In this document: positions 6,201 to 31,979 of the stretch, piece by piece | How the letters are laid out: every line of letters begins with the position of its first letter | Position numbering within the stretch: position 1 is the first letter of the stretch | Origin: Desulfotalea psychrophila LSv54 | GTDB taxonomy: Bacteria > Desulfobacterota > Desulfobulbia > Desulfobulbales > Desulfocapsaceae | DNA: 32,000 nucleotides | Direction: 5' to 3' | Assembly (NCBI RefSeq): GCF_000025945.1 | Contig: NC_006138.1 | Location: forward strand, 2,100,001-2,132,000 | Notes under the pieces: generated by a model | Databases searched by the model: none | What the model was told of the DNA's origin: nothing | Seen by the model: the letters and a program-made list of their open reading frames with translations, nothing else | Program-made: the position numbers and the translations under genes

Positions 6201-6211
6201 ATTTCAAAAAA

Positions 6212-6248
6212 GGGCTTACAGGCTTTTTGGCTGTAAGCCCTTTTTTTT
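6212..6248 (+). terminator. Rho-independent terminator after tRNA-fMet
   Basis: 10-bp stem GGGCTTACAG (6212-6221) / CTGTAAGCCC (6231-6240) followed by T8 (6241-6248). Confidence 0.85.
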
Positions 6249-6753: not shown

Positions 6754-6814
6754 GTTGTAAATACATAAGGTTAGAATAATCTCTTTGAGGTTTTTTTGAC
6801 CAAGGTATTAAGAA

Positions 6815-6851
6815 GCCCCTTAGGATTAATTTCCTAAGGGGCTTTTTTTTT
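6815..6851 (+). terminator. Rho-independent terminator after csp
   Basis: 10-bp stem GCCCCTTAGG (6815-6824) / CCTAAGGGGC (6833-6842) followed by a T9 tract (6843-6851). Confidence 0.85.
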
Positions 6852-6966
6852 ATAAAAAATGAGAAAGCTGACGTTAAATTGTATTTTTTAGCTTGATTCC
6901 TCTTGCATAAAGACATTCTAGTATTATTTTATTGGGAATGATTATTAAATATTTATAGAGGCTAGT

Positions 6967-7497: not shown

Positions 7498-7590
7498 TCT
7501 AGGGATCGTTTTTGTCTCTTTAACCTGTTATCATTGCTCTTGGTAGGACGTTTCCTTGAGCTCATGAGTGAATAGAGAGGTAGAGAATCA

Positions 7591-14986: not shown

Positions 14987-15009
14987 TGTTATCGCTCTCA
15001 ATTGGTTCG

Positions 15010-15031
15010 GCAGGGCTGTAATCAGCCCTGC
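15010..15031 (-). other. Inter-cistronic stem-loop between pstS and pstB
   Basis: 9-bp GC-rich stem GCAGGGCTG / CAGCCCTGC with a 4-nt loop and no U-tract. It sits right after the pstS stop, so it could be a transcript-stabilising or partial-attenuation hairpin giving excess pstS mRNA. Confidence 0.45.
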
Positions 15032-15042
15032 TGGCAAAATAT

Positions 15043-16083: not shown

Positions 16084-16125
16084 CTTCTTCTCCTGGTAGT
16101 TTTTTTACCGTAGGGTTTATTGGTG

Positions 16126-17388
16126 TTACCACTTTGTTTCGAATTTCTTACGCAGGAATACCGCCGCGGCATTCATGGAGATTAAAAACAGCAGCAGGAT
16201 CATGATGGCCGCTGAGGTTTTTTCGGAAAAGGCCCGTTCCGGGCTGTCTGCCCAAAGATATATCTGTACGGGCAGGACCGTGGAGGGGTCAGTGATTCCA
16301 CCTGGAATGTCGACAATAAAGGCAATCATGCCAATCATCAGCAGGGGTGCCGTTTCACCAAGGGCCTGGGCCATACCAATGATTGTCCCTGTCAGCATGC
16401 CGGGCATGGCCAGGGGGAGGACATGGTGGGTTATGGTCTGCATCTTGGAGGCACCAACGCCAAGGGCTGCTTCACGGATGGAGGGGGGCACTGATTTGAG
16501 GGAGGCCCGGCTGGCAATGATGATTGTTGGCAGGGTCATCAGGGAGAGTACCAGCCCACCCACCAGCGGAGTAGAGCGGGGTATTCCCCAGATGTTGATG
16601 AAGACTGCAAGACCGAGCAGGCCAAAAATAATTGAAGGCACAGCGGCAAGGTTGTTGATGTTTACCTCAATCAGATCTGTCCACCTGTTGCTCGGGGCAA
16701 ACTCTTCGAGATAAATTGCCGTGGCCACCCCAATGGGAAAGGAGAGGCAGAGGGTGATGAGGAGAGTATAGAAAGAACCACAGGCTGCTCCCAAAATTCC
16801 TGCCAACTCCGGTTCACGCGAATCTCCCGCCGTGAAAAAGGTGGTGTTGAAAACCATCTCTATTTTATTATTTGCCACCAGGCTGTCAATCCAAGCCAGC
16901 TGTTGATCGTTCACCCGGCGATTGGCCTGAGGCAGAGAACGATCAATTTCTCCCTTCATCAGCATATCCACATCATCGTTTGCAGGAACCCAAAATTTCA
17001 GTCGACTGCCTATTATGGCCGGATCTGCAAGTACCTTATCCTGAATTTCAAAGGAGGCACCGGGACTGATCAGGCGATAGAGACTCTTTTTATCCTGTCG
17101 ATCTGTTACCTCGGGAAACAGGGCATAAAGAGATCTCTTCACCATGGCCGGATAATTTGCCAGGCGAAGGTTTTCGCCTACGAAATCTGCTGGTCGTAAC
17201 TCCACCTCAAGCTCTATTTTTGTCTGCTCAAAGGCCTTATAGCCATGGGTAAAAATATCAGAGAAGAGAAAGGCAATAAAACAGAGAGCTACAGCTATGG
17301 CAGAGACACCGGCAAGACGGAAACAACGGTCCTTGCGATATCGACTCTGTAGTTTTGCACTATTTTGTATGCTGGCGAGTGTATTCAT
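16126..17388 (-). CDS. pstA: Phosphate ABC transporter permease PstA (long form with large N-terminal periplasmic loop)
   Basis: 420-aa ORF. After the first TM helix there is a ~170-aa soluble loop, then the PstA permease core with the EAA-type loop ('SLKSVPPSIREAALGVGASKMQT'). Confidence 0.88.
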   Translation of the reverse strand: MNTLASIQNSAKLQSRYRKDRCFRLAGVSAIAVALCFIAFLFSDIFTHGYKAFEQTKIELEVELRPADFVGENLRLANYPAMVKRSLYALFPEVTDRQDKKSLYRLISPGASFEIQDKVLADPAIIGSRLKFWVPANDDVDMLMKGEIDRSLPQANRRVNDQQLAWIDSLVANNKIEMVFNTTFFTAGDSREPELAGILGAACGSFYTLLITLCLSFPIGVATAIYLEEFAPSNRWTDLIEVNINNLAAVPSIIFGLLGLAVFINIWGIPRSTPLVGGLVLSLMTLPTIIIASRASLKSVPPSIREAALGVGASKMQTITHHVLPLAMPGMLTGTIIGMAQALGETAPLLMIGMIAFIVDIPGGITDPSTVLPVQIYLWADSPERAFSEKTSAAIMILLLFLISMNAAAVFLRKKFETKW

Positions 17389-17490
17389 TTTTTTTTTACT
17401 TATGGGTGATTTGAAAAATTAAGATTTTCAATAAATATCAGCGAGGCCCCGACTCCGAGGCGAATTAAAAAATTTCTGGCAGGGCAGAGA

Positions 17491-18876
17491 TTATTCATAT
17501 TGCTCCCGGTATCTGCGCACAACATAGAGGGCAATGATGTTAAGAAACAGGGTGAAGATAAAGAGAAAGAGACCCAGGGCAAAGGCGGCCAGGGTCTTGG
17601 CACTGTCAAATTCCTGATCTCCCGTGAGCAGAGTGACGATCTGTACGGTTACGGTGGTCACCGCCTTCAGGGGATTATAGGTAAGATTGGCCGAGAGTCC
17701 CGCCGCCATAACTACGATCATTGTCTCGCCAATGGCTCTGGAGACGGCGAGTAACACACTGCCGACGATCCCCGGCAGGGCCGCAGGGATAACAACGTTT
17801 TTTATTGTTTCATAGGAGGTTGCCCCCAATGCCAGGGAACCATCACGTAGGGATTGGGGAACCGCATGGATAACATCATCTGAGAGTGAGGAGACAAAGG
17901 GGATAATCATAATTCCCATGACAAGACCCGCTGCCAGAGCACTTTCAGAGGAGACCGCAAAACCGAGATTCGAGCCAACATCCCGAATCATGGGAGCTAC
18001 GGTAAGGGCTGCAAAAAAGCCATAGACAACGGTTGGAATCCCGGCCAAAATCTCCAGAAGAGGTTTGACCCAGGTGCGCACCTGTTCCGATGCATATTCG
18101 GAGAGAAAAATTGCCGAGAGCAGACCTATGGGAATGGCAATAGCCATCGCTATGAGGGCAATCAAAATGGTACCGGCAAAAACCGGTACAGCACCGAAGG
18201 CCCCGGATGATCCTGCCTGGTCGACTCGCATGGCCGTCTGTGGACTCCACTTGAGTCCGAGAAGGAAATCTAAAACGGGGACCTCTCTGAAGAAGGCAAT
18301 TGATTCAATCAGCACCGACATGATGATACCAAGAGTGGTAAAGATGGCTACAGCAGAGCAGAGCATTAAAAAGATGGTAGAGAGTCGTTCCACGATATTT
18401 CTGGCACGTAACTCCAGGCTGATATTGCGGTAACTCAGGTAAAAGCCCAGGATGGTGAGGCCGAGTGAGAGATAGGCCATAAGGCTTTGCCAGCCTTGCT
18501 GAGTGGCGAGATAGAGTCGTGCACTTCCTGTGGCGGTGGCATTGTTGAGAGAGGTGACAATATCTCCCCGAATGGCATTTTTAACGTCATTCATTACCAG
18601 GGAGAATTCGTTGCCTGAGAGGCTCTGTAGCTCTTGGGGCAAACCCCTCTTTACAGCAAGGGTTAAGAGATGTCCCTCGGCCATCTGCCAGAGGCTCCAG
18701 ATAGCGAGTGCCGGTACGGCCGTCCAAAAAGCCACGAAGAGGCCGTGATATAGTGGCAGGGAGTGCAGAGAGCGCAGACCATCCTGTCTCCACAGTTCCT
18801 TGGCTCTGCCGGATCCTTTCAGGTAAGCTGCCAGGGCAAGAACAAGAATTATTGGCAGTAAATAGTTGTAAAGCAT
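17491..18876 (-). CDS. pstC: Phosphate ABC transporter permease PstC (long form)
   Basis: 461-aa ORF. It has the PstC core with the EAA loop ('AVPQSLRDGSLALGATSYETI') and an extended N-terminal region of about 150 aa. Confidence 0.88.
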   Translation of the reverse strand: MLYNYLLPIILVLALAAYLKGSGRAKELWRQDGLRSLHSLPLYHGLFVAFWTAVPALAIWSLWQMAEGHLLTLAVKRGLPQELQSLSGNEFSLVMNDVKNAIRGDIVTSLNNATATGSARLYLATQQGWQSLMAYLSLGLTILGFYLSYRNISLELRARNIVERLSTIFLMLCSAVAIFTTLGIIMSVLIESIAFFREVPVLDFLLGLKWSPQTAMRVDQAGSSGAFGAVPVFAGTILIALIAMAIAIPIGLLSAIFLSEYASEQVRTWVKPLLEILAGIPTVVYGFFAALTVAPMIRDVGSNLGFAVSSESALAAGLVMGIMIIPFVSSLSDDVIHAVPQSLRDGSLALGATSYETIKNVVIPAALPGIVGSVLLAVSRAIGETMIVVMAAGLSANLTYNPLKAVTTVTVQIVTLLTGDQEFDSAKTLAAFALGLFLFIFTLFLNIIALYVVRRYREQYE

Positions 18877-18912
18877 CGTCTATCTCGTCTGGGAAAAATT
18901 TGATCTAAAAAT

Positions 18913-19572
18913 TCAGGATATTCTGACAATGTCGCCTTCCACCAGATAGACGACCTCTTCGGCAATATTGGTTGCCCGGTCAGCAATTCTCTCCAGGTAG
19001 CCTGCCACTAAAAAGACATCTATCAGGGCCGACGAGCAGTCGTGGCCTTGATAAAATTCTGCCTTGATATTCTTGTATGCGCTGTCCCGCAGGGCATCAA
19101 CATCGTCGTCTAAAAAGAAGACCTGTCGTGCCTTGGCCGAATCTCGCTTGACCAGGGCGTCAATACTCATCTTCAACATTTCAATGACAATCCTGGACAT
19201 GGTCGAATAATCAATGGTCTGGCCGACCTCGATCTGTTGCTCGGAAATTTTTCTCACACAGCGCCCTATATTTACAGCTGTGTCGGCTATCCTTTCCATT
19301 TCGTTGTTTATTTTAATAACAGCTACAATGAATCGAAGGTCGCTGGCCACGGGTTGATACAGTGCTAACAGCTTGAGACAATCCTCTTCGATCTCTACCT
19401 CCAGCTCATCTATCTCATAATCAGAGCGAATCAGAGAGTTGACAGCCTCTTCATTGTGGCTCTCGATAACCTCTGTTGCCCTTTGTACCCGGTTTTCTAC
19501 CAGGCTACTCATGTGCATCATCTTGCAGTTAAGGGCGATTAATTCATTTTGAAAGCTATCCTGTAGAACCAT
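18913..19572 (-). CDS. phoU: Phosphate signalling complex protein PhoU
   Basis: It has two PhoU repeats with the E/DxxxD metal motifs ('NNEMERIADTAVNI', 'AGYLERIADRATNIAEE'). ATG 19572 (MVLQDSF...) has an AGGAGAGG RBS. The basic 30-aa extension from 19662 is rejected. Confidence 0.9.
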   Translation of the reverse strand: MVLQDSFQNELIALNCKMMHMSSLVENRVQRATEVIESHNEEAVNSLIRSDYEIDELEVEIEEDCLKLLALYQPVASDLRFIVAVIKINNEMERIADTAVNIGRCVRKISEQQIEVGQTIDYSTMSRIVIEMLKMSIDALVKRDSAKARQVFFLDDDVDALRDSAYKNIKAEFYQGHDCSSALIDVFLVAGYLERIADRATNIAEEVVYLVEGDIVRIS

Positions 19573-19661
19573 TATATTTTTCCTCTCCTTGCCGCTGCCG
19601 GCCTGTTTTTTTCTTTGCCGCTTTACTGATGTACATATTAGAGGCCTGATGTTCGTTTGCA

Positions 19662-19728
19662 ATTAGGTCTTTATTAGGATTAGGTTAGGAGGGGTAAAAC
19701 TTGTTGCAGTGAGGAGGTAAAACCTGCA
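19662..19728. promoter_or_regulatory. Direct-repeat cluster in the phoU/phoB divergent region (candidate PhoB boxes)
   Basis: ATTAGG occurs at 19662, 19673 and 19679 (plus TTAGG at 19685). GGTAAAAC occurs at 19693-19700 and 19716-19723 (23 nt apart), each followed by TGCA. This does not match the E. coli CTGTCAT Pho box. Confidence 0.3.
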
Positions 19729-19778
19729 ATACTCCTGCATGATTAACCTCCACCGGCAAAAAAATCCTGGGAAATAAA

Positions 19779-20507
19779 ATGGCAAAACTCCATATTCTTA
19801 TTGTAGAAGACGAGGCGGATATCCAGCAACTTGTGAGCTATAACCTCGTAAGAGCAGGTTTTAATGTGACGTGTGCAGATTCGGGAGAGGAGGCTCTGGG
19901 CTGTCTGGCCCGGGAGGCCTTTGACTGTATACTCCTTGATATCATGCTTCCCGGGATCAGCGGTCTTGAGGTCTGTCAGAGCATACGGCAGAACGAGGGC
20001 AAGTTGGACGCAGGGAGCCCCATCATCATGATGACCGCCAAGGGAGAGGAGGAGGATATTATTGACGGCCTGGAAAAGGGTGCCGATGATTACATCACTA
20101 AGCCATTCAGCCCCAAGGTGCTTGTGGCCCGGGTAAAGGCGGTGGTTAGACGAGGCCAAAAGGCAGAGGCTCACTCGGACAGCGGTCATATTAGCATTGC
20201 CAATCTCGTTATTGATCAGGGACGATATGAGGTTACGGCACAGGGAAAGGCAATCCAGCTCACTCTTACAGAATTTGGTATTCTGGTCCTCCTTGCTGAA
20301 AAGCCTGGTTGGGTCTTTACCAGACAGCAGATCATTGATGCGGTACGGGGATATGATTTTTTGGTTACCCCTAGGGCCATTGATGTACAAATTTTCGGTT
20401 TAAGAAAAAAACTGGGTGCTGCCGGTCAGTCTATCGAAACTGTGCGCGGCATAGGCTATAAGTTTAAAGATCCCCAGGAAGAGGACCTGGAACGGGGGCA
20501 GCGATGA
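19779..20507 (+). CDS. phoB: OmpR/PhoB-family response regulator
   Basis: It has a receiver domain (ILIVEDE...LLDIMLPGISG...MMTAKGEE) and a winged-helix output domain (LTLTEFGILVLLAEKPGWVFTRQQI...RAIDVQIFGLRKKL...IETVRGIGYKF). It overlaps the kinase gene through ATGA and lies divergent from phoU-pst. Confidence 0.88.
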   Translation: MAKLHILIVEDEADIQQLVSYNLVRAGFNVTCADSGEEALGCLAREAFDCILLDIMLPGISGLEVCQSIRQNEGKLDAGSPIIMMTAKGEEEDIIDGLEKGADDYITKPFSPKVLVARVKAVVRRGQKAEAHSDSGHISIANLVIDQGRYEVTAQGKAIQLTLTEFGILVLLAEKPGWVFTRQQIIDAVRGYDFLVTPRAIDVQIFGLRKKLGAAGQSIETVRGIGYKFKDPQEEDLERGQR

Positions 20508-22312
20508 AAGCTAAGAAAATAATCTGGCAAATTTTCCCGGCAAACCTGCTCATCCTCCTTGTCGCTCTGACAGCAGCAACATGGTATAGCACTGCAAGTA
20601 TTCAAGCATTCTTTCTGGCTGAAACTGAAAACAGCCTTGAGTCAAGGTGTCGTTTGGTGGGTGCCCGGGTAGTTGAACTTGTCGAAGAAGATAATATAGC
20701 TGAACTCAGGGATTTTATCGTTCAGGGTGGAAGGGAATCGGGCGTACGCCTTACTGTTATAGCTGCTTCGGGTAGGGTGCTTGCCGACTCCAACGAAGAT
20801 CCGGATATCATGAACAATCATCGGAATCGCCCCGAAGTTGCTACGGCATTGTCAGGGACAACAGGCAGCTCCCTTCGCTTTAGCACGACCCTGAGTGATG
20901 CCCTTCTCTATGTGGCCATCCCCCTTCGTTTGCAGGCATCTCCCGTCACAACGAATCTGATCCTGCGAGCCTCTCTATCGATTTCTTCTCTTTATCAGAC
21001 AATAGCCAGAATTAAACGACGAGTAGCCCTGGGGGCACTGGCCATTGTTATTTTGGCTATCCTCACCACCCTCTTTATATCGCGAAATATCAGCCGTCCC
21101 CTTGAGGAGCTGAAAATATGGGCGGAACGATTTGCTCATGGTGATTTTTCTAAGAGAAAAGAGCTACTTCAGAGCAGGAATGCATCGAGGGAGGTCGTCG
21201 CCCTGGCAAAAACCATGGAGAGGATGGCTGAAAATCTGCATGAAAAAATAGATATGATCAGCAATCAACGAAATCAGCTTGAAACTCTTTTTTCAAGTAT
21301 GCGGGAGGGGATTATTGCCATCGACTTCGAGGAACGAATTGTCCTGATAAACGATGCCGCTACCAGACTATTTGATCCCGGTGGCTCGCCGTCTGCAGGG
21401 AAGCTGGTGCAGGAATTTACCCGCAGCCTTGACCTCCTTCAGCAGATTCAGTATGTGCGGGAAACGGGTGAATCGCTGAAGGCTGAGCTTACCCTGCATG
21501 GAAGCCAGACAACCTCTTACCTGCAGACAAGTGCTGTTCCTTTCCATATGGCAAACGATGACAGCAGTGGAGTGCTCATTGTCTTAAATGATGTTACCCA
21601 TCTGCGACGACTTGAAAGCGTTAGGCGGGACTTTGTTGCCAATGTCTCCCACGAACTGCGCACCCCCATTACTGCAATACGTGGTTATGTGGAAACCCTC
21701 CTTGACGGAGCCCTGGATCAGAAAGAGGATGCCAGGCGATTTCTCGCCATCGTCCTCCGGCAATCGTCACGGCTCAGTGATATCATCAATGATCTACTTG
21801 CCCTGTCACGGATCGAACTTGATTCCAGTACCGATAATATTGAACTCGAAGAGCAACATATCTGTAGTGTTGTTCGTGCTGCTCTGCAAACCTGTCAGAT
21901 AGATGCCGAGCAAAAGGGGATTATTCTTCAGTTGCACTGTCCGGAGGATATAAGGGTCCCGCTTAATCCTCATCTCATTGAGCAGGCTTTGGTGAATCTT
22001 ATTGTTAATGCTGTGCGCTATAGTCCGGAAAAAAGTGAGATTAGGGTGGAAGTTCTTGCCTGCGAGGAAGGGCAGGAGGTATCTATCAGCGTTGCAGATG
22101 ATGGTTGTGGTATAGGGGCAGAGCATCTACCAAGGGTTTTTGAAAGATTCTATCGTAGTGATAAGGCACGGAGCAGGGAGTTGGGTGGAACGGGACTCGG
22201 ACTTGCCATTGTTAAACATATTGTTCAGGCCCATAATGGTAGGGTCGCAGTTAATAGTGAGGAAGGGGTTGGGACAGAGTTCTCTTTTTTCCTGCCAATA
22301 AAGGGAGAGTAG
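20504..22312 (+). CDS. phoR: Sensor histidine kinase PhoR-like (2 TM, ~140-aa extracytoplasmic domain, HAMP, PAS, HisKA, HATPase)
   Basis: It has the H-box 'FVANVSHELRTPITAIRGY', N-box 'LVNLIVNAVRYSP', G1 'DDGCGIG' and G2 'GGTGLGLAIVKHIV'. Predicted TM helices are at about aa 10-30 and 174-192. Confidence 0.85.
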   Translation: MKAKKIIWQIFPANLLILLVALTAATWYSTASIQAFFLAETENSLESRCRLVGARVVELVEEDNIAELRDFIVQGGRESGVRLTVIAASGRVLADSNEDPDIMNNHRNRPEVATALSGTTGSSLRFSTTLSDALLYVAIPLRLQASPVTTNLILRASLSISSLYQTIARIKRRVALGALAIVILAILTTLFISRNISRPLEELKIWAERFAHGDFSKRKELLQSRNASREVVALAKTMERMAENLHEKIDMISNQRNQLETLFSSMREGIIAIDFEERIVLINDAATRLFDPGGSPSAGKLVQEFTRSLDLLQQIQYVRETGESLKAELTLHGSQTTSYLQTSAVPFHMANDDSSGVLIVLNDVTHLRRLESVRRDFVANVSHELRTPITAIRGYVETLLDGALDQKEDARRFLAIVLRQSSRLSDIINDLLALSRIELDSSTDNIELEEQHICSVVRAALQTCQIDAEQKGIILQLHCPEDIRVPLNPHLIEQALVNLIVNAVRYSPEKSEIRVEVLACEEGQEVSISVADDGCGIGAEHLPRVFERFYRSDKARSRELGGTGLGLAIVKHIVQAHNGRVAVNSEEGVGTEFSFFLPIKGE

Positions 22313-22385: not shown

Positions 22386-22961
22386 TTAAGCTGCTTTTTT
22401 TACAAACTGAGTAAGGAGAACAAGACGCTGTCCTTCTACCCGGCCTTCAATGTGTGCGGCATTGTCGGCAACCAGGCTGATATTGCGGACAGTGGTTCCG
22501 CGTTTTGCCGTGAATCCACCACCCTTAACATTGAGATCTTTGATAAGAGTTACAGAATCGCCATCGGCAAGTGGGGTTCCATTGCTATCAACGTGGACTA
22601 CGGAACTCTCCTCGGCCTCTTCTTCTTGTCCTAATTGGGCCCAGGCCAGGGTTTCTTCTTCAAGATAGAGCATATCAAGAAGATCCTGCGGCCAACCTTC
22701 GGCCTTTATTTTATTCAAGATACGCCAAACCATCACCTGAACTGCTGGTATCTGGCTCCACATGGTATCATTGAGACAACGCCAATGGTGTACATCGTCT
22801 AATTTTTCGATTTGTTCTGCACAATGGGAGCAGATTAAAACAGATTTGTCTGCATTTGCTGCAGATTCTGGTGGAACAGCAAAAACCACAAGATTTTCAA
22901 TTGCATTACATAACTCACATTTACTCTCACTACGTGCATACAACTCTTCCTGAACACTCAT
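22386..22961 (-). CDS. phnA: PhnA/YjdM-family zinc-ribbon protein (long ~190-aa form)
   Basis: It has the C-terminal PhnA domain (DSNGTPLADGDSVTLIKDLNVKGGGFTAKRGTTVRNISLV...HIEGRVEGQRLVLLTQFVKK) and an N-terminal Cys pair set (CELC...CSHC). The start is taken at ATG 22961, which has a GGAGA RBS. ORF 23054 would add a spurious hydrophobic leader. Confidence 0.8.
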   Translation of the reverse strand: MSVQEELYARSESKCELCNAIENLVVFAVPPESAANADKSVLICSHCAEQIEKLDDVHHWRCLNDTMWSQIPAVQVMVWRILNKIKAEGWPQDLLDMLYLEEETLAWAQLGQEEEAEESSVVHVDSNGTPLADGDSVTLIKDLNVKGGGFTAKRGTTVRNISLVADNAAHIEGRVEGQRLVLLTQFVKKAA

Positions 22962-23066
22962 TGACAAAAATTCTCCATTTTTTTTAATAAAAACAACCTG
23001 CGATAATGGGGCGCATGATAACATAAGTGCCAACAGAAAGATATTTTTGCTCAAGAGAGAAGCTTA

Positions 23067-23474
23067 CTATTTCTTTGTCGGGGACGAAAGAAAGCAACTC
23101 TTTAGCCAAGAAGAGAATCGTTGCCACCAGTTACCTCTGAGCTCCAGGATGATATCCTCTCGACGGCGGGTGGCTATTTGCAGTTCCTCTTCGCTGAAAT
23201 TTTCTCGGCCAAGATTTTCGGCCAGTTCAATATCCAGAAGTAGATGTTTATTGTCTGCACAGTTTATAACAGCTACCTCAATCTCTTCAAGCTTTAACTC
23301 CTGACAGGCTGTATAACGCCTGAAACCTGAGATAAGACGGTGGTTTTCATCAACAACAATGGGGTGGAGAAGACCTACCTTGGCAATAGAATTTTTCAGC
23401 GGAGCCAGATCGCCGGTACCTTGCCTGATTCTTGCTGCAGGATCCACAATTATCTCTTCAATTTTTAGCTTCAT
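23067..23474 (-). CDS. ParB/Srx N-terminal-domain-only protein (135 aa)
   Basis: ParB box I-like 'LKNSIAKVGLLHPIVV', the GxRRxxA arginine patch 'SGFRRYTAC' (23307-23327) and box III-like 'AENLGRENFSEEEL' are all present. There is no HTH or dimerisation domain, and the C-terminus is Trp-rich. A GGAGG RBS is present. Confidence 0.7.
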   Translation of the reverse strand: MKLKIEEIIVDPAARIRQGTGDLAPLKNSIAKVGLLHPIVVDENHRLISGFRRYTACQELKLEEIEVAVINCADNKHLLLDIELAENLGRENFSEEELQIATRRREDIILELRGNWWQRFSSWLKSCFLSSPTKK

Positions 23475-23663
23475 CTTTCCTCCTTAAAAGAAATATTCTC
23501 TATTAAAAAACCTATATTAATCTCAAGTATACACACTAAGTTCTTTGTAGACCCCATACCTTTTTCAAAAATAGTTCCTTTCGCCAGTTAACTAAGCACA
23601 GAGGGATAGGGCGGTTGGATAAAATATTTCTTGAACTGTTTTGCCTGTCGCTCAGTTTTTCTT

Positions 23664-23691
23664 TGCCAGTTGTCTGTAGAGTAATATAGAA
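23664..23691 (+). promoter_or_regulatory. Candidate sigma70 promoter of the partner-switching/ABC operon
   Basis: TTGCCA (23664-23669), a 16-nt spacer, then TATAGA (23686-23691), about 37 nt upstream of ATG 23728. This is a sequence match only. Confidence 0.3.
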
Positions 23692-23727
23692 TTATCGTAT
23701 ATCTTTATAGCAATAATAAAATACAAA

Positions 23728-25542
23728 ATGATGCTTCAAGGCTTTTTCTCAACTATGCTAAAAAAAATCAAACCGACGAGTCTTGGACAACGTACAGTCC
23801 TCTATGTGCTTGCGCCCACCCTTGTCATTCTTCTTTTTTCCGGTTTTCTTACATTTCAAACAGCCCGAGATATCCTCCTGCAGGAATGGATAGAGCAGGC
23901 CAATACAAGCCTAAAAAATGGGGCAAATATAATAGATGGCCGTCTCGAAGATCCCAAAAGACTCCTGCAACTTATTCAAAAGGCTCCGGTGGGTCCTGCT
24001 GGTTATGCAACGCATGAATATCTTATCGATCGTCTGAAGGGGATAAAAGGTGTGCTGGCAGCGGAAGTGGATTGGCCGAAATTTTCAGATGGCCCTCTTC
24101 CGCTACCTCTTACCGGTGCTGCTGTCATCACCACTATGCACAGTGGGGCGGCCACAGGTGTGCACACAACAAGGCCTAGTTATACCGAGACTTTTGCTCA
24201 AAAAAAGATCTCTCTTGTTTCAGAGTATAGGGATCAGAACAATGAATCTATTGGGAAAATTCAGGTATTTATATCTCTTGCAGATCTACTGAGTGATGTA
24301 ACAAATTCTCTTTGGTGGCGGGAGCAGTCGTCTTTTATTATTGATAAAGAGGGACATACCCTTGCTCACCTTTCTCAGAGCGAATTAAATAGAGCAAAAA
24401 AGATATTTGAGAAAAAAAAATGGAATAGGATAAATAAAGAGAAGTTTGGGACAATCTTTAGTGAGGGAAAACCCCCTAAGGAAGTCTGTGTCTTTTATCA
24501 TCTGGAGCAGGCCCCCTGGACTTTGGTTGTTATTGTCTCTGGCGAGAAGGTACTCAAGCCGCTACTGAATTTTCGTAATGCATATTTTTTTATCACCATC
24601 ATCACTGGACTTACCATCCTTCTCACTATCCATCTGGTAACCTCGAAGGTTAACCGTAAAATTAATCAGGTTTCAGCAGCGGCCAGTCGACTTGCTGCTG
24701 GTTATTTTAGTGAACCTCTCTCCATAGAAACCGATGATGAAATAGGTGCCCTCTGTCAGAACTTTAATGAGATGACCAGCCAACTTAAGAATGGGTTAGA
24801 TCTGCAGAAATCCATAGAGCTTGCTCGGGAGGTACAGCAGAATTTACTGCCTGGCAAGGATTTAAAAACAGCAGAGGTAGAAATTTCCGGCACCTGTATA
24901 TACTGTGATGCCACGGGTGGTGATTATTTTGATATTATCCCCTGTCCCCTATCAGATAGTATTGGTGTTGCTGTCGGTGATGTCGTGGGCCATGGCATTA
25001 GTGCCGCCCTGCTTATGACTACCACCCGGGCTTTAGTTCGCTGTAGACTTAACAGTTCGGGCACTCTGGCCGATGTTGCCACCGAGGTGAATGCTCTTCT
25101 TTATAAGGACACGGCCCAGGCTAGTAATTTTGTGACCCTTTTTCTGATGAAACTTAGCCCGGAACAACGAAAAATTTCCTGGGTGCGGGCAGGACATGAA
25201 CCTGCCATAGCCTATAATGCACGAACGCGGGTCTTTACCAACATACAGGGTAATGGTGTCGCTTTGGGGGTTAATCAGGCGTATCGCTACCAGGATCAGG
25301 AAATCACTCTGAGTAAGGATGTTCAGATACTGCTCATTGGTACAGACGGTATTTGGGACGCAGAAAATCCAGAAGGGGAACAATTTGGCAAAGAACGGGT
25401 GCAGAGCCTGCTGGCTGCAAATGCTCATCTTCAACCAAGAGAAATAATTTGCAATATATCAGAATCAATAAAAGTTTTTCAGAAAGATGCACCTCAATCA
25501 GACGATATTACCTTCGTCATTATAAAATTCCCTGCCATATAA
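23728..25542 (+). CDS. Transmembrane sensor PP2C phosphatase (extracytoplasmic domain - HAMP - SpoIIE/RsbU-type)
   Basis: Predicted TM helices are at about aa 23-44 and 285-305, flanking a ~240-aa outside domain. The HAMP domain reads (KINQVSAAASRLAAGYFSEPLSIETDDEIGALCQNFNEMTSQL). The PP2C/SpoIIE motifs are 'AREVQQNLLP', 'GGDYFD', 'GDVVGHGISAALLM', 'LIGTDGIWD' and 'QSDDITFVIIKF'. Confidence 0.88.
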   Translation: MMLQGFFSTMLKKIKPTSLGQRTVLYVLAPTLVILLFSGFLTFQTARDILLQEWIEQANTSLKNGANIIDGRLEDPKRLLQLIQKAPVGPAGYATHEYLIDRLKGIKGVLAAEVDWPKFSDGPLPLPLTGAAVITTMHSGAATGVHTTRPSYTETFAQKKISLVSEYRDQNNESIGKIQVFISLADLLSDVTNSLWWREQSSFIIDKEGHTLAHLSQSELNRAKKIFEKKKWNRINKEKFGTIFSEGKPPKEVCVFYHLEQAPWTLVVIVSGEKVLKPLLNFRNAYFFITIITGLTILLTIHLVTSKVNRKINQVSAAASRLAAGYFSEPLSIETDDEIGALCQNFNEMTSQLKNGLDLQKSIELAREVQQNLLPGKDLKTAEVEISGTCIYCDATGGDYFDIIPCPLSDSIGVAVGDVVGHGISAALLMTTTRALVRCRLNSSGTLADVATEVNALLYKDTAQASNFVTLFLMKLSPEQRKISWVRAGHEPAIAYNARTRVFTNIQGNGVALGVNQAYRYQDQEITLSKDVQILLIGTDGIWDAENPEGEQFGKERVQSLLAANAHLQPREIICNISESIKVFQKDAPQSDDITFVIIKFPAI

Positions 25543-25543
25543 T

Positions 25544-28045
25544 ATGAAGAAAACATCTCAAAAACCAGTTTGTAAAACGTCTCTGTTCTTTTGGGCCTTC
25601 CATGGCAATCTTAAACTGCAGATATGCTTGTTTTTTATAGTTGTTTTGATTGTCGGGGCTCGGGTCCTGCCCCTAGAGATGCAAAAAAGGGTAATTAATG
25701 ACGCTATTGCCCTGCAAAATGTCGAAAAATTATTTCTTTACTGTGGGATATACCTGCTTTCGATTACCCTGGCAGGAGCATTGAAAATAGCAATTAATTA
25801 TATCCAGTCGATTATCGGCGAGCGGGTAATGTTTGCTATGCGCCAACAACTTTATGAGCATATTCTCACCCTGCCACTGAGCTTTTTTCGCAAAACCCAA
25901 CCGGGAATGGTTGTTTCTGCCCTGATGTCTGAACTCAGTGCTGCAGGCACCTTTGCCGGCATGGCCTTTGCCTCTCCCCTGACTAATATATTGTCACTTC
26001 TCGCCTTTGCCATTTATCTGATGTGGCTCCATACCTCCCTTGCCCTCCTTACCCTTGTTATTTATCCTGCAGTGTCTTTTATTCTTCCCTTTCTTCAGAG
26101 AAAGGCTAATAGGGCGAATAAGTCTCGGGTTGATATTACTCGAAGCGCATCAAACCAAATAGCAGAATCAGTTTCAGGAATTGCAGAAATACAGGTCCAT
26201 GCTGCCTATCAGCAAGAGGATAAGAAATTTCGTTACTATAATGAAAAGCTGAAAAAAGTCCGAATTCGTTGGTCATTGTTAAAGTTTGGCATCAAGACAA
26301 CCAATAACTATTTTGTTAGTCTTGGCCCATTTTTAGTCCTTCTTTACGGTGGTTATCTTATTATGCATGGCCAGTTAGGACTTGGTGCCATGGTAGCCTT
26401 TCTCTCAGCTCAGGAAAAGCTCTATGATCCCTGGAAGGAGCTTATTGATTTTTATCAGGTCTATCAGGATGCCTCGATACGCTACAAACGTACCATGGAG
26501 TATTTTGATCATCAGCCCGAGTTTCTTCTTGAGGCCCCACCCGTAGAATCGATTGACGACAGGGCCTCTGTTGAGGTTACAGGCCTCTCCTTTCAAACCG
26601 AAGAGGGGAAATATCTTCTAAGAGATGTATCTTTTAGGTTAAAGCCGGGTGAGCATATGGCCTTGGTCGGTTTTTCTGGTAGTGGGAAGAGTACATTAAT
26701 TCAGTGTATTGCCAAAATGTATCAGTACAGTAAGGGCACCATAATGCTTGGTGGCAAAAATCTTGCCGATATTTCCAAGAATAGCCTGGTGGAGAAGATG
26801 GGCTATATTTCCCAGCGTCCTTTTATCTTTACCGGTTCTGTTAAAGATAATCTCCTCTATGCTGATCTTGCGGTGAGAGAAGTTGCCGGTGATGAGCAAT
26901 TGGCTGAGCCTGAGCTTGACCGGATGATTCTTGCCCTTCAGCAAGCAGGCCTCTATGCCGATGTTATGCGTTTTGGCCTTGATACCATCGTTGGCTCTGA
27001 TCAGATTGATATTATCAATGCAGTTATTAATATTCGGCCAAATTTTCGTAAAACATTTGCCGTTCAATTGGAACCTTATGTCGAATTTTATAAGAGCACA
27101 GATTATCTCTATCACTCCTCCCTTATTGGAAACATTATTTTTGGGGTGGCAGTGCCTAATGGTCTGGGAGTTGAACAGCTAAGTAAGCATAAGGACTTTA
27201 CCACCTTTCTTAAACAGACAGGTCTTCTTGAGCCACTTGAATCTCTTGGTGAAAGAATAATTAGTGAAACCCTTGCCCTTATTGGAGATCTGGAGGATCC
27301 CGATCTTCTTGCTGAAAAAAGCCCTATTCCCACAGAGTCTCTTGAGCGGACAAGAAAAATTCTTGCCCGTAGTAAGGACAAGAAAATTACTGAAACGGAT
27401 AAAAACTTTTTGTTAACAATCGCTCTGGAGTTTACCCCTGCTATTCATACCATGGTAGGTCTGCCTATGGCGCTCCGGGAGAGTATTCTGGAGGGGCGGA
27501 AAAAATTCCCTGCCTGGGCGGAGGAATTTTTCCCGGGAGAATTTAAATTTTATAATAAGGATAGTTATATTCATAACCAGTCCTTACTTAATAATATTTT
27601 TATGGGCAAGGCTAAGCAGGGTATGCCCCATGCTCAGGAGAAGATAAATAAGGCGATTATTCAACTCCTTATTGAAGAGGATGTCCTGGAATATGTGGTA
27701 TACTTGGGGATGCAATTCCAGGTAGGTAGCGTCGGAGACAGACTTTCTGGAGGACAAAAACAAAAACTGGCCATAGCCCGGGTACTTCTGAAGAACTCAT
27801 CTCTTGTTATTATGGATGAGGCTACATCGGCGCTGGATAATGCTTCACAGGCGCGCATTCAACGTCTTATCGATACTAGGTGGCGTGATAAACGAACCGT
27901 TATTGCAGTTATGCATCGTCTGGATGGTATTGATTCATTTGATAAAATTGGGGTAATGAAGGCTGGACGGTTATTAGAAGTGGGAAGTTACCAAGAACTT
28001 ATTGATAAAAAAGGTGTATTTCATGAACTCTTATTCGGAAGATAA
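25544..28045 (+). CDS. ABC exporter (type-I TMD + NBD half-transporter) with a ~250-aa insertion inside the ATPase domain
   Basis: It has a 6-TM ABC_membrane region, Walker A 'GFSGSGKST' (26669-26695), Q-loop Gln (26813-26815), signature 'LSGGQ' (27743-27757), Walker B 'LVIMDE' (27803-27820) and H-loop 'VMHR'. The ATG lies 1 nt after the phosphatase stop. Confidence 0.85.
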   Translation: MKKTSQKPVCKTSLFFWAFHGNLKLQICLFFIVVLIVGARVLPLEMQKRVINDAIALQNVEKLFLYCGIYLLSITLAGALKIAINYIQSIIGERVMFAMRQQLYEHILTLPLSFFRKTQPGMVVSALMSELSAAGTFAGMAFASPLTNILSLLAFAIYLMWLHTSLALLTLVIYPAVSFILPFLQRKANRANKSRVDITRSASNQIAESVSGIAEIQVHAAYQQEDKKFRYYNEKLKKVRIRWSLLKFGIKTTNNYFVSLGPFLVLLYGGYLIMHGQLGLGAMVAFLSAQEKLYDPWKELIDFYQVYQDASIRYKRTMEYFDHQPEFLLEAPPVESIDDRASVEVTGLSFQTEEGKYLLRDVSFRLKPGEHMALVGFSGSGKSTLIQCIAKMYQYSKGTIMLGGKNLADISKNSLVEKMGYISQRPFIFTGSVKDNLLYADLAVREVAGDEQLAEPELDRMILALQQAGLYADVMRFGLDTIVGSDQIDIINAVINIRPNFRKTFAVQLEPYVEFYKSTDYLYHSSLIGNIIFGVAVPNGLGVEQLSKHKDFTTFLKQTGLLEPLESLGERIISETLALIGDLEDPDLLAEKSPIPTESLERTRKILARSKDKKITETDKNFLLTIALEFTPAIHTMVGLPMALRESILEGRKKFPAWAEEFFPGEFKFYNKDSYIHNQSLLNNIFMGKAKQGMPHAQEKINKAIIQLLIEEDVLEYVVYLGMQFQVGSVGDRLSGGQKQKLAIARVLLKNSSLVIMDEATSALDNASQARIQRLIDTRWRDKRTVIAVMHRLDGIDSFDKIGVMKAGRLLEVGSYQELIDKKGVFHELLFGR

Positions 28046-28532
28046 TTATCAATCTTGCCAGATGAAGAAAAATTTGGCTGTTTTGCAAGAGGTTGATTTT
28101 TTTTCGCAGGTGCCCCCGCAGGCCCTGAAAATTATCGCCTTTCTTTGCAGGAGAATGTTTCTTGACGTAGGAGAGATTGTCTTTGCCAAGGGGGATGATC
28201 CGGCCAGGTGCTTCTACATTGTTTCTGGAGAGTTCGAGCTTATCTGTACAGCTGACTCAGGAGGAGAATCACATATTGCCAAGCAGGGAGATCTGGTGGG
28301 TTCTCTTTCACTTCTTGCCCGGCATTCATCTCCTTTTACTATGACTGCCAGCAAGGAGAGTGATGTCTTGGTAATAGACAGAGCTACCTTTGAGAAGGTG
28401 GTGGTGCAATTCCCTGAACTATATAAAATAACGGCAGAAAATATTGCAAAACGGATTTATCGTTGGGATGCCCTACAGTGTGAAAAAAGATGTTCTGACA
28501 AATCTCCTCGGGGCGGGGTGAGTTTCCTCTAA
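28023..28532 (+). CDS. Stand-alone cyclic-nucleotide-binding-like (CAP effector-domain) protein
   Basis: The cNMP-domain beta-barrel pattern is present (LQEVDFFSQVPPQALKIIAFLCRRMFLDVGEIVFAKGDDPARCFYIVSGEFEL...GDLVGSLSLL...ASKESDVLVIDRATFEKVV). There is no HTH. ATG 28023 has an AAGGTG RBS and overlaps the ABC stop by 23 nt. TTG 28002 and ATG 28062 are alternative starts. Confidence 0.75.
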   Translation: MNSYSEDNYQSCQMKKNLAVLQEVDFFSQVPPQALKIIAFLCRRMFLDVGEIVFAKGDDPARCFYIVSGEFELICTADSGGESHIAKQGDLVGSLSLLARHSSPFTMTASKESDVLVIDRATFEKVVVQFPELYKITAENIAKRIYRWDALQCEKRCSDKSPRGGVSFL

Positions 28533-28544
28533 GAGGCTATAGCA

Positions 28545-28949
28545 ATGGAATTTATTTGGGCACGTCAAAATACGCAGGAAAATTTACAGGATCTGCGCGA
28601 AGATATTGAGAGTCTGGGCAAGAGGTGGCAGTTAGATAAAAAAACCATGTTTAATCTGCAACTTATAGTGGATGAATTTGTCACTAATCTTGTCAGCCAT
28701 TGCAACTGTGGTATTGGTATTCATCTCACTATAACCAAGGAGGAAGAGAATCTCCTCATCACCATAAAAGATAACTGTAGTCCTTTTAACCCTCTTGCTG
28801 TTGCTCTGCCTAATCTATGTGCGCCTCTCTGTGATAGAGAAGCAGGGGGGCTAGGTATTTTCCTAATTCGTAAAAAGAGTAGATACATTAATTATAGAAG
28901 AACAGATTCAGAAAATATTACTACGATAACCTTGGCGATAGAGAAATAG
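28545..28949 (+). CDS. RsbW/SpoIIAB-like anti-sigma-type serine kinase (HATPase_c_2)
   Basis: 134-aa ORF with the N-box 'IVDEFVTNLVSH', a G1-like 'IKDNCSPFNPL' and a G2 'EAGGLGIFLIRK'. An AAGAGG RBS is present. Confidence 0.8.
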   Translation: MEFIWARQNTQENLQDLREDIESLGKRWQLDKKTMFNLQLIVDEFVTNLVSHCNCGIGIHLTITKEEENLLITIKDNCSPFNPLAVALPNLCAPLCDREAGGLGIFLIRKKSRYINYRRTDSENITTITLAIEK

Positions 28950-28979
28950 TAGTTTAGCAAAAAAACAAATGGGTTCTGT

Positions 28980-29315
28980 ATGGAAATTACAATTAGTAAA
29001 GATAATAATATACTGGTCACTAACCTGTCCGGTAAACTCAACTCAACAACGGTGACCAAACTCGAGGAGTCCCTGCGACAGCATACTTCGCCGCCATTGA
29101 GTCACCTTGTCCTTAACTGTCAGGACCTTGAGTATATATCAAGTGCTGGTCTCCGCATTGTTCTGTCTCTTACTAAAACATTTGCAAAAACTGACTGGCA
29201 TTTTACCATCTGCTGTTTGCAGGAGCATGTCCTTGAAGTTTTTGAAATGTCAGGATTTGATAGTCTGGTAACGATAAAGACGAGCCAGGAGGAGGCTAAG
29301 GAAAAGCTCAGTTAA
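28980..29315 (+). CDS. STAS-domain anti-sigma-factor antagonist (RsbV/SpoIIAA-like)
   Basis: 111-aa ORF. It has the 'LSGKLNSTTVTKLEESL' N-terminus and a conserved phospho-acceptor context 'DLEYISSAGLRIVLSL' (Ser54 at 29139-29141), plus 'VFEMSGFDSLVTI'. Confidence 0.85.
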   Translation: MEITISKDNNILVTNLSGKLNSTTVTKLEESLRQHTSPPLSHLVLNCQDLEYISSAGLRIVLSLTKTFAKTDWHFTICCLQEHVLEVFEMSGFDSLVTIKTSQEEAKEKLS

Positions 29316-29556
29316 GGATGGTACTTCTTGACAGAGCAGTCCAGAATATTGAGTGCTTTTTTCAGGTATCCAAGCGTGATAGTGTAGTTATTCGTCAATC
29401 GGCTTATTATAATGTGGAATAACTGGTATCCTGAAGCTTTTCACAAAAAATGAAAAACGCATAAAGCTTAAGTTTCCAAGGTCGCACAGGATCCGATTAA
29501 GTTGAGTGATGTGAAGGAACTTGAGAGAATTCATCAGAGATGAATTTAAAACTGCT

Positions 29557-29796
29557 ATGCTAATTGTTAAATGTGCTGCCTGTAAGAAGAAGTTATGGTC
29601 TTATGAAAAAATAGGGCAGGGCGAGGTGTTGCGTTGCCATAAAGAGCGGATACAGAAGTTCTTTTACCAAGCTGAGCCGGGGAAGGCAGAGCATAAAATT
29701 TACTGCTCCTGTGGAAAAGAGATCGGGATAGATAGGGGTAAGTTTTTTAAAATGATAGCAAAGGCCTTTACTTATTCTGGAACCAAAAGAAATTAA
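29557..29796 (+). CDS. Small Cys-rich (zinc-ribbon-like) hypothetical protein
   Basis: ORF 29521..29796 (TTG start; first ATG at 29557, MLIVKCAACKKK...). It has CxxC near the N-terminus and CxC ('YCSCG') about 40 aa later. There is no convincing RBS, so coding status is uncertain. Confidence 0.4.
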   Translation: MLIVKCAACKKKLWSYEKIGQGEVLRCHKERIQKFFYQAEPGKAEHKIYCSCGKEIGIDRGKFFKMIAKAFTYSGTKRN

Positions 29797-29930: not shown

Positions 29931-31979
29931 TTAAACTTTAAATTGTCCCACTGCTGCTTTGAGGGATTCTGCTATTTCGAAGAGTTCGCCTGCCCGGGTC
30001 TTAACCTGGGTGCTGGCATTGCTCATATCGTTTGCACTGCTGTTTACTCCTGCAATCTCTGCCGAGATACTCTCGGTTACGGTAGAATTGCTTGCCACGT
30101 TTTCACTCACCTCGGTGATGCCGCTTGAGGCCTGGCTGACATTGATGGCAATTTCTTTGGTGGTGACGTTCTGCTCTTCCACTGCGGTGGCAATGGTCGC
30201 AACGATTTGATCGACATCGGCAATAACCTGACGAATTTCATCAATTTCCTTTACGGTTACTCCCGTTGCCTGTTGAATGCCATCGATCTTCTTTTTAATA
30301 TCAAGGGTTGCATTGGCTGTCTGTTTGGCCAGATCCTTAATCTCGTTTGCCACTACGGCAAAGCCCTTACCTGCCTCACCGGCCCGAGCCGCTTCGATGG
30401 TGGCATTAAGGGCCAGCAGGTTTGTCTGCTCGGAAATTTCGGTGATGACCTCCGTCACCCGGGTGATCTCTGCCGCGGCTGTGCCAAGTTCGTTGACACG
30501 TTGCGATGCCTGTTGAGAACGATCAACGGCCTGTTGGCTAATACCCTTTGCCTTACCTGAATTTTCTGCAATTTCGCCTATGGTTGCGTTCATCTCTTCA
30601 GCAGCTGTAGCCACCATGGAAATATTGACCGAGGCCTGTTCCATCGCCGCTGCCACGGAATTTTGGTTGGCGCTCATCTCTTCAGCTGACTGAGCCACCT
30701 GGGTTGATCTGCTGGCGGTATCTAAAACTCCTTTTGCCATATCATCGGAGATGGCGACAAGCTCAGTAGAAGAGTCGTCTAGGACGTTCACCCGTTGATT
30801 AATGTCCCCTATGACTCCCCGTAGGCTGGTTGACATCTCGTTAAGCGAAACTGCCAGCAGGCCAATTTCATCCTTTTGATCCACATCCATCCGCTGGGTC
30901 ATATCACCCTCTGCCATCTTTCTTGCCAACTCAACACCTTTAAAAAGAGGGCGGGTGATCAAGAGGGTCAGGATAAGACCCAGTCCCAAGGCCAGGACAA
31001 CGCCCACGACAATGCCAATAATGATGAGTATCTTGCCCTTTTGGGCAATTGCTTCGGCCTCTGTAGCAGCTATCTGGGCACTCGTATCTGCCTTGGCAAC
31101 AATGGTATCAACGGTTGCATAAACACGATTCTGATAGGTCATAGCATCTTCTAACAGAAGGGTGCTCATCTTGTGAAAATTTTTATAGGCTGTGTCAATG
31201 GGTTTGGTCATCTCTGTCAGTACGGCAAAGACTTTTTCGCTCTCTGGATAGACCTTAGTTCCCATGATCTCTTTCGCTTCGGCGGGACGACCTGCCCTGA
31301 TGGCCGCCTTTACCTGAGCCACGCTTCCATGAAACTGGTTATGAATTCTCTTTGCCTTTTCAGCTATGGCAAGAATGTCTGGATTTTGAGTATCCATATT
31401 ATTAAGAAATTTGCCGATATTACAGGCATGAGGATCTCCGCCTCCGACAAAGGATCTTCCGGTTGAAATGAGCCTGGCTAGATCTATCAGGAGGACCTCA
31501 TGCTCTTTTACAGATTTTTCCATGAGTTTTTGCCGTAACATGGGATTGACAATATCAGCTCTGACAAGTTGCTGAGACAGTTCTACCGCCTGATTACTGA
31601 TTTCGCCCCATTTTTTAAGGTTTGTTTTAAAATCCCGCCATTCCGGTTTTACCTCTTCGGCAAATGGCAGCTTTTTAAACTCATTAATAGTTATTCCGTA
31701 ATTAGCCCTTGCCTGGGCAAGATCTGTTATGACTTTTTGCCGTTGCTCAATAGAGGCATATGGGGTGAGCAGAGAACGCAATACTCCACTAATAATAGCC
31801 GCTTCGGCCTTGATTTTCAGAATTTTTTCCATTGCTGGCATGCTGTTATTAGCCAGCTCCTGCTCCTGAACATGCAGGGCCTTCAGCTGCAAGACACCAA
31901 CCATGCCGACAAAAACTACAATCAGGGCAGTGAGGGCAAAGCCTCCACCCAGCTTTACCCCTAGCTTCAAATTTTTCAT
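29931..31979 (-). CDS. Methyl-accepting chemotaxis protein (TM1 - four-helix-bundle-like + CZB-motif sensor region - TM2 - HAMP - MCP signalling domain)
   Basis: It has an AAGGAGAGG RBS. TM helices are at about aa 11-32 and 317-341. The HAMP domain reads ([44 protein letters not shown]). The highly conserved hairpin tip reads '[35 protein letters not shown]'. Confidence 0.92.

Follow-up and report, generated by a model that had tools for sequence, protein, structure and literature searches.

A putative partner switch encoded with an insertion-bearing ABC exporter in Desulfotalea psychrophila and its relatives

In the Escherichia coli lipid transporter MlaFEDB, the STAS domain of MlaB binds the helical subdomain of the ATP-binding cassette (ABC) ATPase MlaF; Thr52, the equivalent of the STAS phosphorylation site, is central in the interface, and a T52E substitution weakens binding (PMC7367683). 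The study of the MlaFB structure raised the question of whether phosphorylation can switch STAS control of an ABC ATPase, with no kinase in hand to test it (PMC7367683). In the partner switch SiaABCD of Pseudomonas aeruginosa, SiaC in its unphosphorylated form binds the output enzyme and thereby activates it (PMC8457831, PMC7647112), and the cyclic nucleotide-binding (cNMP)-fold domain of HetC from Nostoc, which is needed for function, binds ppGpp and not a cyclic nucleotide (PMC10986499). Here, we analyzed a 32,000-nucleotide (nt) stretch of the Desulfotalea psychrophila LSv54 genome (NC_006138.1, positions 2,100,001-2,132,000; hereafter the window, whose positions are used for all coordinates unless another locus is named) in which genes for a membrane PP2C phosphatase, an ABC exporter, a cNMP-fold protein, an RsbW-like kinase, and a STAS protein follow each other. 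An earlier reading of these letters alone (the original prediction) had proposed that the five genes form a partner switch without a sigma factor that gates the exporter. Based on comparison across genomes, our best model is post-translational gating of the exporter by unphosphorylated STAS in the manner of MlaB on MlaF, to which we assign a probability of about 0.5.

All five + strand open reading frames (ORFs) predicted between 23728 and 29315 are present in the ORF list at the expected coordinates. The features of the locus are:

23663..23692 (+), weak candidate sigma-70-like promoter, TTGCCA-18-TAGAAT, upstream of the PP2C gene in a divergent intergenic region of 253 nt
23728..25542 (+), membrane PP2C (SpoIIE/RsbU-type) Ser/Thr phosphatase, 604 amino acids (aa); Pfam SpoIIE 1.1e-41, HAMP 2.1e-9
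25544..28045 (+), ABC half-transporter, transmembrane domain (TMD) followed by nucleotide-binding domain (NBD), type IV exporter fold, 833 aa; Pfam and NCBIfam
27002..27559 (+), core of the NBD insertion, aa 487-672, an all-alpha domain in the AlphaFold2 (AF2) model
28023..28532 (+), stand-alone cNMP-binding-fold protein, 169 aa; Pfam cNMP_binding 9.7e-15
28545..28949 (+), RsbW/SpoIIAB-like HATPase_c_2 protein, putative STAS kinase, 134 aa; Pfam HATPase_c_2 3e-15
28980..29315 (+), SpoIIAA/RsbV-type single-domain STAS protein, 111 aa; Pfam STAS 1.2e-18

Read base by base, the gene junctions matched the predicted ones throughout. Specifically, the PP2C stop codon TAA (25540-25542) is followed after 1 base by the ABC ATG (25544), the cNMP ATG (28023) sits within the ABC frame with a 23-nt overlap that includes the ABC stop codon (28043-28045), and 12 nt and 30 nt separate the end of the cNMP gene from the RsbW-like ATG (28545) and the end of the RsbW-like gene from the STAS ATG (28980), respectively. 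Pfam and NCBIfam also agreed with the predicted domains (HAMP and SpoIIE/PP2C; ABC_membrane and a split ABC_tran; cNMP_binding; HATPase_c_2; STAS). Promoter-type matches in the intergenic region upstream of the PP2C gene numbered 20 vs 15.4 ± 3.9 in shuffles, i.e. they were not in excess.

As in MlaFEDB, a single-domain STAS protein is encoded with an ABC transporter, and the helical subdomain, which is bound by MlaB in MlaF, is the element that is enlarged in the window ABC protein. However, in Mla, a lipid-trafficking system, MlaE and MlaF are separate subunits and an MCE protein takes part, whereas the window ABC protein is a fused TMD-NBD protein with an MsbA/TAP-like fold; MlaB has no known kinase or phosphatase, whereas genes for both accompany STAS in the window; and the window STAS protein is SpoIIAA-like by sequence. 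SiaABCD resembles the locus as a partner switch that has no sigma factor and shares an operon with its enzyme target, and its phosphatase SiaA, a sensor in the membrane, combines HAMP and PP2C domains, an architecture that the window phosphatase matches, but its output is a diguanylate cyclase and not a transporter, and it has no cNMP-fold subunit. SiaA (NF038263) is the best NCBIfam match of the window phosphatase (E 8e-21), which is nevertheless not a SiaA orthologue because it reaches 74 bits against a cut-off of 700; with this cut-off missed and no GGDEF domain in Pfam scans of the five operon proteins, membership in the SiaABCD family was rejected. In the HenR/All4160 system of Anabaena PCC 7120, a PP2C phosphatase and kinases likewise set the phosphorylation of a STAS domain, controlling an envelope-biogenesis enzyme and not a sigma factor, but this enzyme, a glycosyltransferase that the heterocyst polysaccharide layer requires, is not an ABC exporter and the lineage is unrelated.

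Gene order links the switch to the exporter. We scanned an alignment of the NBD insertion against one genome per species, obtained 141 relatives, kept 80 loci, almost all labelled Desulfobacterota and chiefly Desulfobulbales, and searched the window proteins against all ORFs in the about 20 kb of DNA examined per genome. The clade of the window (clade 1) comprises 65 loci, 60 of them informative with at least 1.5 kb downstream. The cNMP gene is present in 54 of these 60, the RsbW-STAS pair in 54, and all three genes in 50, with the four-gene core ABC>cNMP>RsbW>STAS in the same order and on the same strand as in the window in 50/60 loci; no more than 2.5 kb separates a STAS gene from the ABC gene in 56/60. 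Because the flanking genes differ and are unrelated between loci (an NrfD/FeS/cytochrome c redox complex, SelD, importers, PanE, PurF, MerR), the conservation of the cassette is not inherited general synteny. Four loci (L042, L056, L064, L065) have the order PP2C-ABC-RsbW-STAS with no space for a cNMP gene, and because these variants keep RsbW-STAS, the switch follows the ABC gene and not the cNMP gene. Conversely, STAS is kept without an adjacent kinase in L053 and L063 (ABC-cNMP-STAS) and in L061 (ABC-STAS), and no surveyed locus has RsbW without STAS, making STAS the component nearest the ABC protein; in L060, RsbW-STAS is located upstream of the ABC gene. This neighborhood test, proposed in the original prediction and seeded here with the ABC insertion, bore out the co-occurrence of RsbW, STAS, and cNMP genes with the ABC gene, and of the single five-gene unit that had been proposed, the four-gene core is conserved while the PP2C linkage varies.

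With RpoE, SigF, and SigB as queries, phmmer detected no ORF of the sigma-70 family, either in the window or, up to about 10 kb from the ABC gene, in the 65 clade-1 loci; the same search did detect sigma-family ORFs in two loci of a second clade (clade 2, see below). The RsbU/RsbV/RsbW-SigB and SpoIIE/SpoIIAA/SpoIIAB-SigF switches of Bacillus subtilis use the same PP2C, HATPase_c_2, and Ser-bearing STAS families, but in contrast to these, there is no sigma gene in the window operon or near the clade-1 loci, the window phosphatase is membrane-bound with a HAMP domain, and the kinase scores below the RsbW and SpoIIAB cut-offs. Because the core is syntenic, the flanks change, and no sigma-like ORF is nearby, we consider the genomic evidence for a coupling between switch and exporter to support it well. 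The original claim that the window also lacks DNA-binding proteins did not hold, since three are encoded, an AraC regulator (731-1642 (-)), a PhoB/OmpR-type response regulator (19779-20507 (+)), and a ParB_N protein (23067-23474 (-)); its claim that a sigma factor is absent stood.

The STAS protein passes TIGR00377 (77 bits vs a cut-off of 53), and its closest solved structure is SpoIIAA (1auz; HMMER E 1.3e-10), in which Ser58, the phosphorylated site, aligns with Ser55. The phospho-acceptor had been assigned to Ser54 (29139-29141), but the correct residue is this Ser55 (29142-29144), which is invariant in 58/58 orthologues, while position 54 varies (S 52, T 4, A 2); the site motif, Y-I-S-S-A-G-L-R, is conserved. 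In the RsbW-like protein, the N box (E44-H52) and the G2 box (G101-G104) are intact, as had been predicted and as the orthologue alignment confirmed. The protein falls below all NCBIfam anti-sigma cut-offs and far below the RsbW and SpoIIAB equivalogs; indeed, neither it nor the phosphatase reaches the cut-off of any characterized NCBIfam equivalog, both being far below, and a PDB sequence search with the RsbW-like protein gave no match at E ≤ 0.01. A word-indexed search for RsbW-like homologues beyond the family gave 32 matches. The nearest (L083-L086, e.g. L085 4849-5571) form HATPase_c_2-STAS pairs. The cluster around them is conserved, has no sigma gene, and also encodes an ABC2-type transporter, AIM24, HAD, prephenate dehydratase, and a heavy-metal P-type ATPase. 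It does not bear on the window cassette; it could be a further partner switch whose output is something other than a sigma factor.

The ABC protein has an ABC_membrane domain at aa 30-289 (25631-26410; Pfam 1.5e-27) and a split ABC_tran domain (5e-28), and with a six-helix TMD and an NBD with all motifs it has the makeup of a type IV exporter, a half-transporter that presumably functions as a homodimer. It had been described as having an aberrant ATPase domain. On the contrary, Walker A (aa 376-384, 26669-26695), the Q-loop glutamine Q424 (26813-26815), LSGGQ (aa 734-738, 27743-27757), Walker B/E759 (27806-27820), and H791 (27914-27916) are all intact and invariant in 12 orthologues, so that the NBD is predicted to be catalytically competent, and the oddity is an insertion in the helical subdomain. 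The protein is not MsbA (TIGR02203, its best match, 297 bits vs a cut-off of 602) or another named exporter, being below cut-off for all 25 NCBIfam models listed. Its database entry (P0001) has 805 aa, 28 residues fewer than the ORF from ATG 25544; because orthologues conserve residues upstream of the annotated start (conservation begins at about residue 9 and covers residues 9-30, with W17, L25, and Q26 invariant), that start looks too late, and the alignment supports ATG 25544 as the start.

The insertion places 310 residues between Q424 and LSGGQ. A first copy of the start of the helical subdomain (aa 424-486) ends G-L-D-T-I-V-G with no signature motif after it, the insert core (aa 487-672) follows, and a second copy (aa 669-745) carries LSGGQ. 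The insert holds the internal repeat motif F-Y-x4-Y-x3-S-x3-N-I-x-F-G, and its segment at aa 510-600, which starts V-E-F-Y, is related in hhalign to the pre-signature segment at aa 668-745 (probability 88%, E 4e-7) and, more weakly, to the Q-loop segment (E 4e-5). Because of this profile-profile homology, the insertion arose, at least partly, by internal repetition of the helical subdomain. An AF2 model of aa 330-833 has a predicted local distance difference test score (pLDDT) of 90.6, and its canonical NBD part superposes on the TAP1 NBD (Foldseek, TMt 0.86-0.88), Foldseek matches of NBD plus insert being limited to this canonical half. Modeled alone, the insert is all-alpha with short strands (pLDDT 93.5; predicted template modeling score 0.86), and neither a phmmer search for sequence relatives in the PDB nor a Foldseek search of the PDB with the AF2 model found a relative (best Foldseek E 1.6, TM ≤ 0.24). 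About 203 clusters at 50% identity carry the insert. The parts of the cassette belong to known kinds, a sigma-less partner switch and an accessory-regulated ABC transporter, while the NBD insertion domain is structurally new; in full-text literature searches, of incomplete coverage, neither the cassette nor the insertion was found to be described. Matches in PADLOC were limited to generic ABC and cNMP domains, and membership in a defence system was rejected.

The second accessory component, the cNMP-fold protein, has its domain at aa 48-127 (28164-28403; PF00027 54.8 bits vs a cut-off of 27.5). The overlap of its start with the ABC stop is kept in 56/56 loci (-5 to -56 nt), and in P0189, P0196, P0248, P0255, and P0265 (990-1066 aa) a C-terminal cNMP_binding domain is fused to an insert-bearing ABC protein in the order of the gene pair, a fusion of the Rosetta-stone type. 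By comparison, no fusion of STAS or kinase to the ABC protein was found among 120 close homologues or ten long representatives scanned, the only fusions found being those with cNMP domains. The canonical phosphate-binding cassette of cyclic-nucleotide domains has a Glu and an Arg (G-E ... R-[ST]-A). Both are absent from the window cassette (GSLSLL...PFTMTA) and from the orthologue consensus (GSLSLL...FT.xA), i.e. throughout the family, suggesting that the protein probably does not bind cAMP or cGMP as its ligand in the canonical way. The fused homologues retain a GE...RSA cassette but have degenerate NBD motifs (Walker A, Walker B, signature), and the degenerate P0189, P0196, and P0255 resemble proteins of cyclic-nucleotide signalling more than active pumps; one fused homologue (L081 487-3579) adjoins two Guanylate_cyc nucleotide cyclases and a CRP-type regulator. 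HetC and the TIGR03896 proteins also pair an ABC exporter with a cNMP-fold regulatory module, either attached or encoded alongside, and ppGpp binding by HetC parallels the non-canonical cassette of the window protein, but in HetC the domain is N-terminal, a C39 peptidase is present, and there is no NBD insertion, and neither system has a partner switch. The window protein itself is not a TIGR03896 bacteriocin-type transport-associated cNMP protein (22.2 bits vs a cut-off of 161). Other distant members have ABC and cNMP without any switch, or ABC alone. Because clade 2 and the distant members have ABC and cNMP without a switch, the ABC-cNMP pair is the wider association, to which RsbW-STAS was added in one clade.

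Of the original description of the phosphatase as a membrane-bound PP2C protein with an outside sensor and a HAMP domain, the membrane segments (hydrophobic in hydropathy analysis at aa 19-37, TM1, and aa 287-305, TM2), the intervening outside loop of ~250 aa, and the HAMP domain (aa 304-354, 24637-24789) were recovered, while the identity of the sensor goes no further than sub-threshold matches to Cache (E 0.03-0.05), the best for this loop. In the PP2C domain region (domain at aa 410-601, 24955-25530) all four Asp-containing metal motifs are present (GGDYFD397, DVVGHG418, GTDG538, SDDIT591). Translation may in fact begin at Met10 (23755), the position at which the orthologue in L001, the locus of the closest Desulfotalea relative, starts.

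Taken together, the exporter is most likely the hub of the cassette, and both accessory modules would act on it. We suggest a model with two layers. In the older and more widespread layer, the cNMP-fold protein would be a stand-alone exporter subunit that reports a small cytoplasmic ligand and that in the window is translationally coupled to the ABC gene. In the second layer, added in one Desulfobulbales-centred clade, the RsbW-like kinase would phosphorylate STAS on Ser55, and the HAMP-PP2C protein would remove this phosphate in response to an extracytoplasmic cue. In its unphosphorylated form, STAS would then bind the NBD, similar to MlaB on the helical subdomain of MlaF, or alternatively would pull an inhibitory RsbW off the NBD, and either route would change ATPase and transport activity. 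We placed STAS next to the ABC protein because it persists without an adjacent kinase, because SiaC and All4160 are effectors, and because of the MlaFB structure. The gene arrangement, the domain identities, the intact motifs, the synteny, the cNMP fusion, and the lack of sigma genes nearby are observed, whereas the contacts between proteins are all inferred from synteny and analogy, as are the ligand and substrate and how regulation is directed. An extended version, in which STAS phosphorylation and the cNMP ligand converge as two inputs on the repeat-derived all-alpha domain of the NBD and together gate ATP hydrolysis and export, is more tentative, and we rate it as possible rather than likely.

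Several observations weigh against the gating model. The set had been called a complete RsbU/RsbW/RsbV-type set, and the phosphatase and STAS features were found and a local sigma factor is absent, but the G1 box of the kinase departs, reading D76-N77-C78 (D-D-A in L001) where most orthologues have D-x-G; because the glycine is missing, kinase activity in D. psychrophila is uncertain. The STAS protein is not MlaB-like by sequence (NF033618 mlaB_1, 18.4 bits vs a cut-off of 90). Insert-bearing ABC proteins without RsbW/STAS exist in clade 2 and among more distant members, and the insert is therefore not switch-specific; residues conserved only in the switch-bearing clade, compared with clade 2, are not enriched in the insert, and for this reason the insert was not adopted as a switch-specific docking site. 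Finally, the PP2C gene lies directly upstream of the ABC gene in only 11/53 loci, and even in L001 an opposite-strand gene for an 809-aa protein (5762-8191 (-); receiver-like, DUF4388, PBP_like_2, and OmpA domains) intervenes between the two.

These points leave room for other readings. The switch might be a conventional one with a target encoded elsewhere, such as sigma-28, the anti-sigma factor FlgM, a diguanylate cyclase, or another enzyme, the ABC and cNMP genes being co-transcribed cargo or merely co-regulated. Many Gram-negative partner switches, e.g. HsbA-FlgM and Chlamydia Rsb, have targets encoded at a distance, the STAS protein passes an anti-sigma-antagonist superfamily model, the kinase is of the HATPase_c_2 type, and the about 20 kb surveyed per genome, a further point against exporter gating, would not reach a distant target gene; in addition, because the nearest outside RsbW-like homologues also sit in sigma-less contexts, kinases of this type commonly have no sigma gene next to them. 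Yet the ABC gene is the sole constant neighbor of RsbW-STAS across 54 loci while the flanks change, STAS remains with the ABC gene where the kinase is not adjacent (L053, L061, L063), and co-transcription alone does not account for strict linkage across several Desulfobacterota families, so we regard a target elsewhere as unlikely.

We also considered that the flow of information might be reversed, with transport or ligand occupancy setting the state of kinase and STAS, which would act on a downstream target. Flux sensing by ABC transporters is known from BceAB-type systems, distant cNMP-fused members have degenerate motifs and one of them adjoins nucleotide cyclases and a CRP regulator, so that parts of the family resemble signalling proteins, and the PP2C gene is not adjacent in 42/53 loci, leaving room for another input. 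However, the ATPase motifs are all invariant in the clade of the window, the window phosphatase with its outside loop and HAMP domain already is a dedicated sensor input, no conserved candidate output is encoded nearby, and we are aware of no ABC exporter that provides the input to a partner switch; we find this reading rather improbable. That two or three independent functions merely happen to lie side by side in D. psychrophila is scarcely credible: the PP2C-ABC junction is not conserved, and terminator and promoter scans are uninformative either way, but the four-gene core recurs in 50/60 loci with differing flanks, the ABC/cNMP overlap is kept in every locus in which it was scored (56/56), and distant homologues have the cNMP fusion, and for ABC-cNMP-RsbW-STAS these comparisons effectively exclude chance adjacency.

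With exporter gating as the preferred reading, the question raised for MlaFB, whether a STAS protein that controls an ABC ATPase is switched by phosphorylation, becomes testable, since the genes around one ABC exporter encode a STAS protein whose phospho-acceptor is invariant, its cognate kinase-like protein, and, in D. psychrophila, also a sensor phosphatase, and the question is directly addressable in vitro because the cassette is conserved in about 50 species. If the extended two-input version is correct, the cassette would be the first natural example of MlaB-like control of an ABC protein by STAS that is demonstrably switched by phosphorylation. Under the gating model, a transporter would join diguanylate cyclases, glycosyltransferases, and type III secretion among the non-sigma outputs of partner switches. 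The ABC family itself is defined by two traits, a confidently predicted NBD insertion without a solved relative and a recurrent cNMP-fold partner, separate or fused, and the cassette may mark a regulated envelope or export function in sulfate-reducing Desulfobulbales, including cold-adapted and sediment species.

Clade 2 (L067-L080, e.g. L074 and L080; also L039, L055, and L069) has the insert-bearing ABC and cNMP genes with no RsbW/STAS. Recurrent neighbors there are a 652-aa multi-TM protein without a Pfam match, a DUF6785/DUF6784 membrane protein, a large FtsX/MacB-type permease, a secreted protein of roughly 200 aa, a 304-aa unknown protein, and a PqqD-like protein, and none of these accessory genes is present in the window. 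In L072, an ECF-type sigma-like ORF (7241-7873 (+)) ends about 0.8 kb upstream of the clade-2 insert-bearing ABC gene, the only sigma gene this near any family member among the 80 loci. Desulfovibrio-type loci (L058 11747-12391 (+); L043, L051, L059) have a gene for a 214-aa signal-peptide protein between the cNMP and RsbW genes, which by eye resembles the secreted protein of clade 2.

Downstream of STAS in the window, a 91-aa Cys-rich zinc-ribbon-like ORF (29521-29796 (+)) without a Pfam family is conserved only in L001 (12920-13159, 130 bits). A methyl-accepting chemotaxis protein gene (29931-31979 (-); 4HB_MCP sensor, sub-threshold zinc-binding CZB, HAMP, and MCPsignal domains) converges on the end of the cluster and elsewhere is not kept beside the cassette. 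On the other side, the ParB_N-only protein (135 aa) is encoded divergently from the PP2C gene and lies beside it in L001 (3378-3803) but not in other loci. Farther upstream is a complete phosphate uptake and regulation cluster (14156-22312) with pstB, pstS, two pst permease genes, and phoU on the minus strand, followed by the PhoB-type response regulator gene listed above and a PAS-HAMP histidine kinase (PhoR) gene (20504-22312 (+)); a PhnA/YjdM gene (22386-23054 (-)) follows this cluster.

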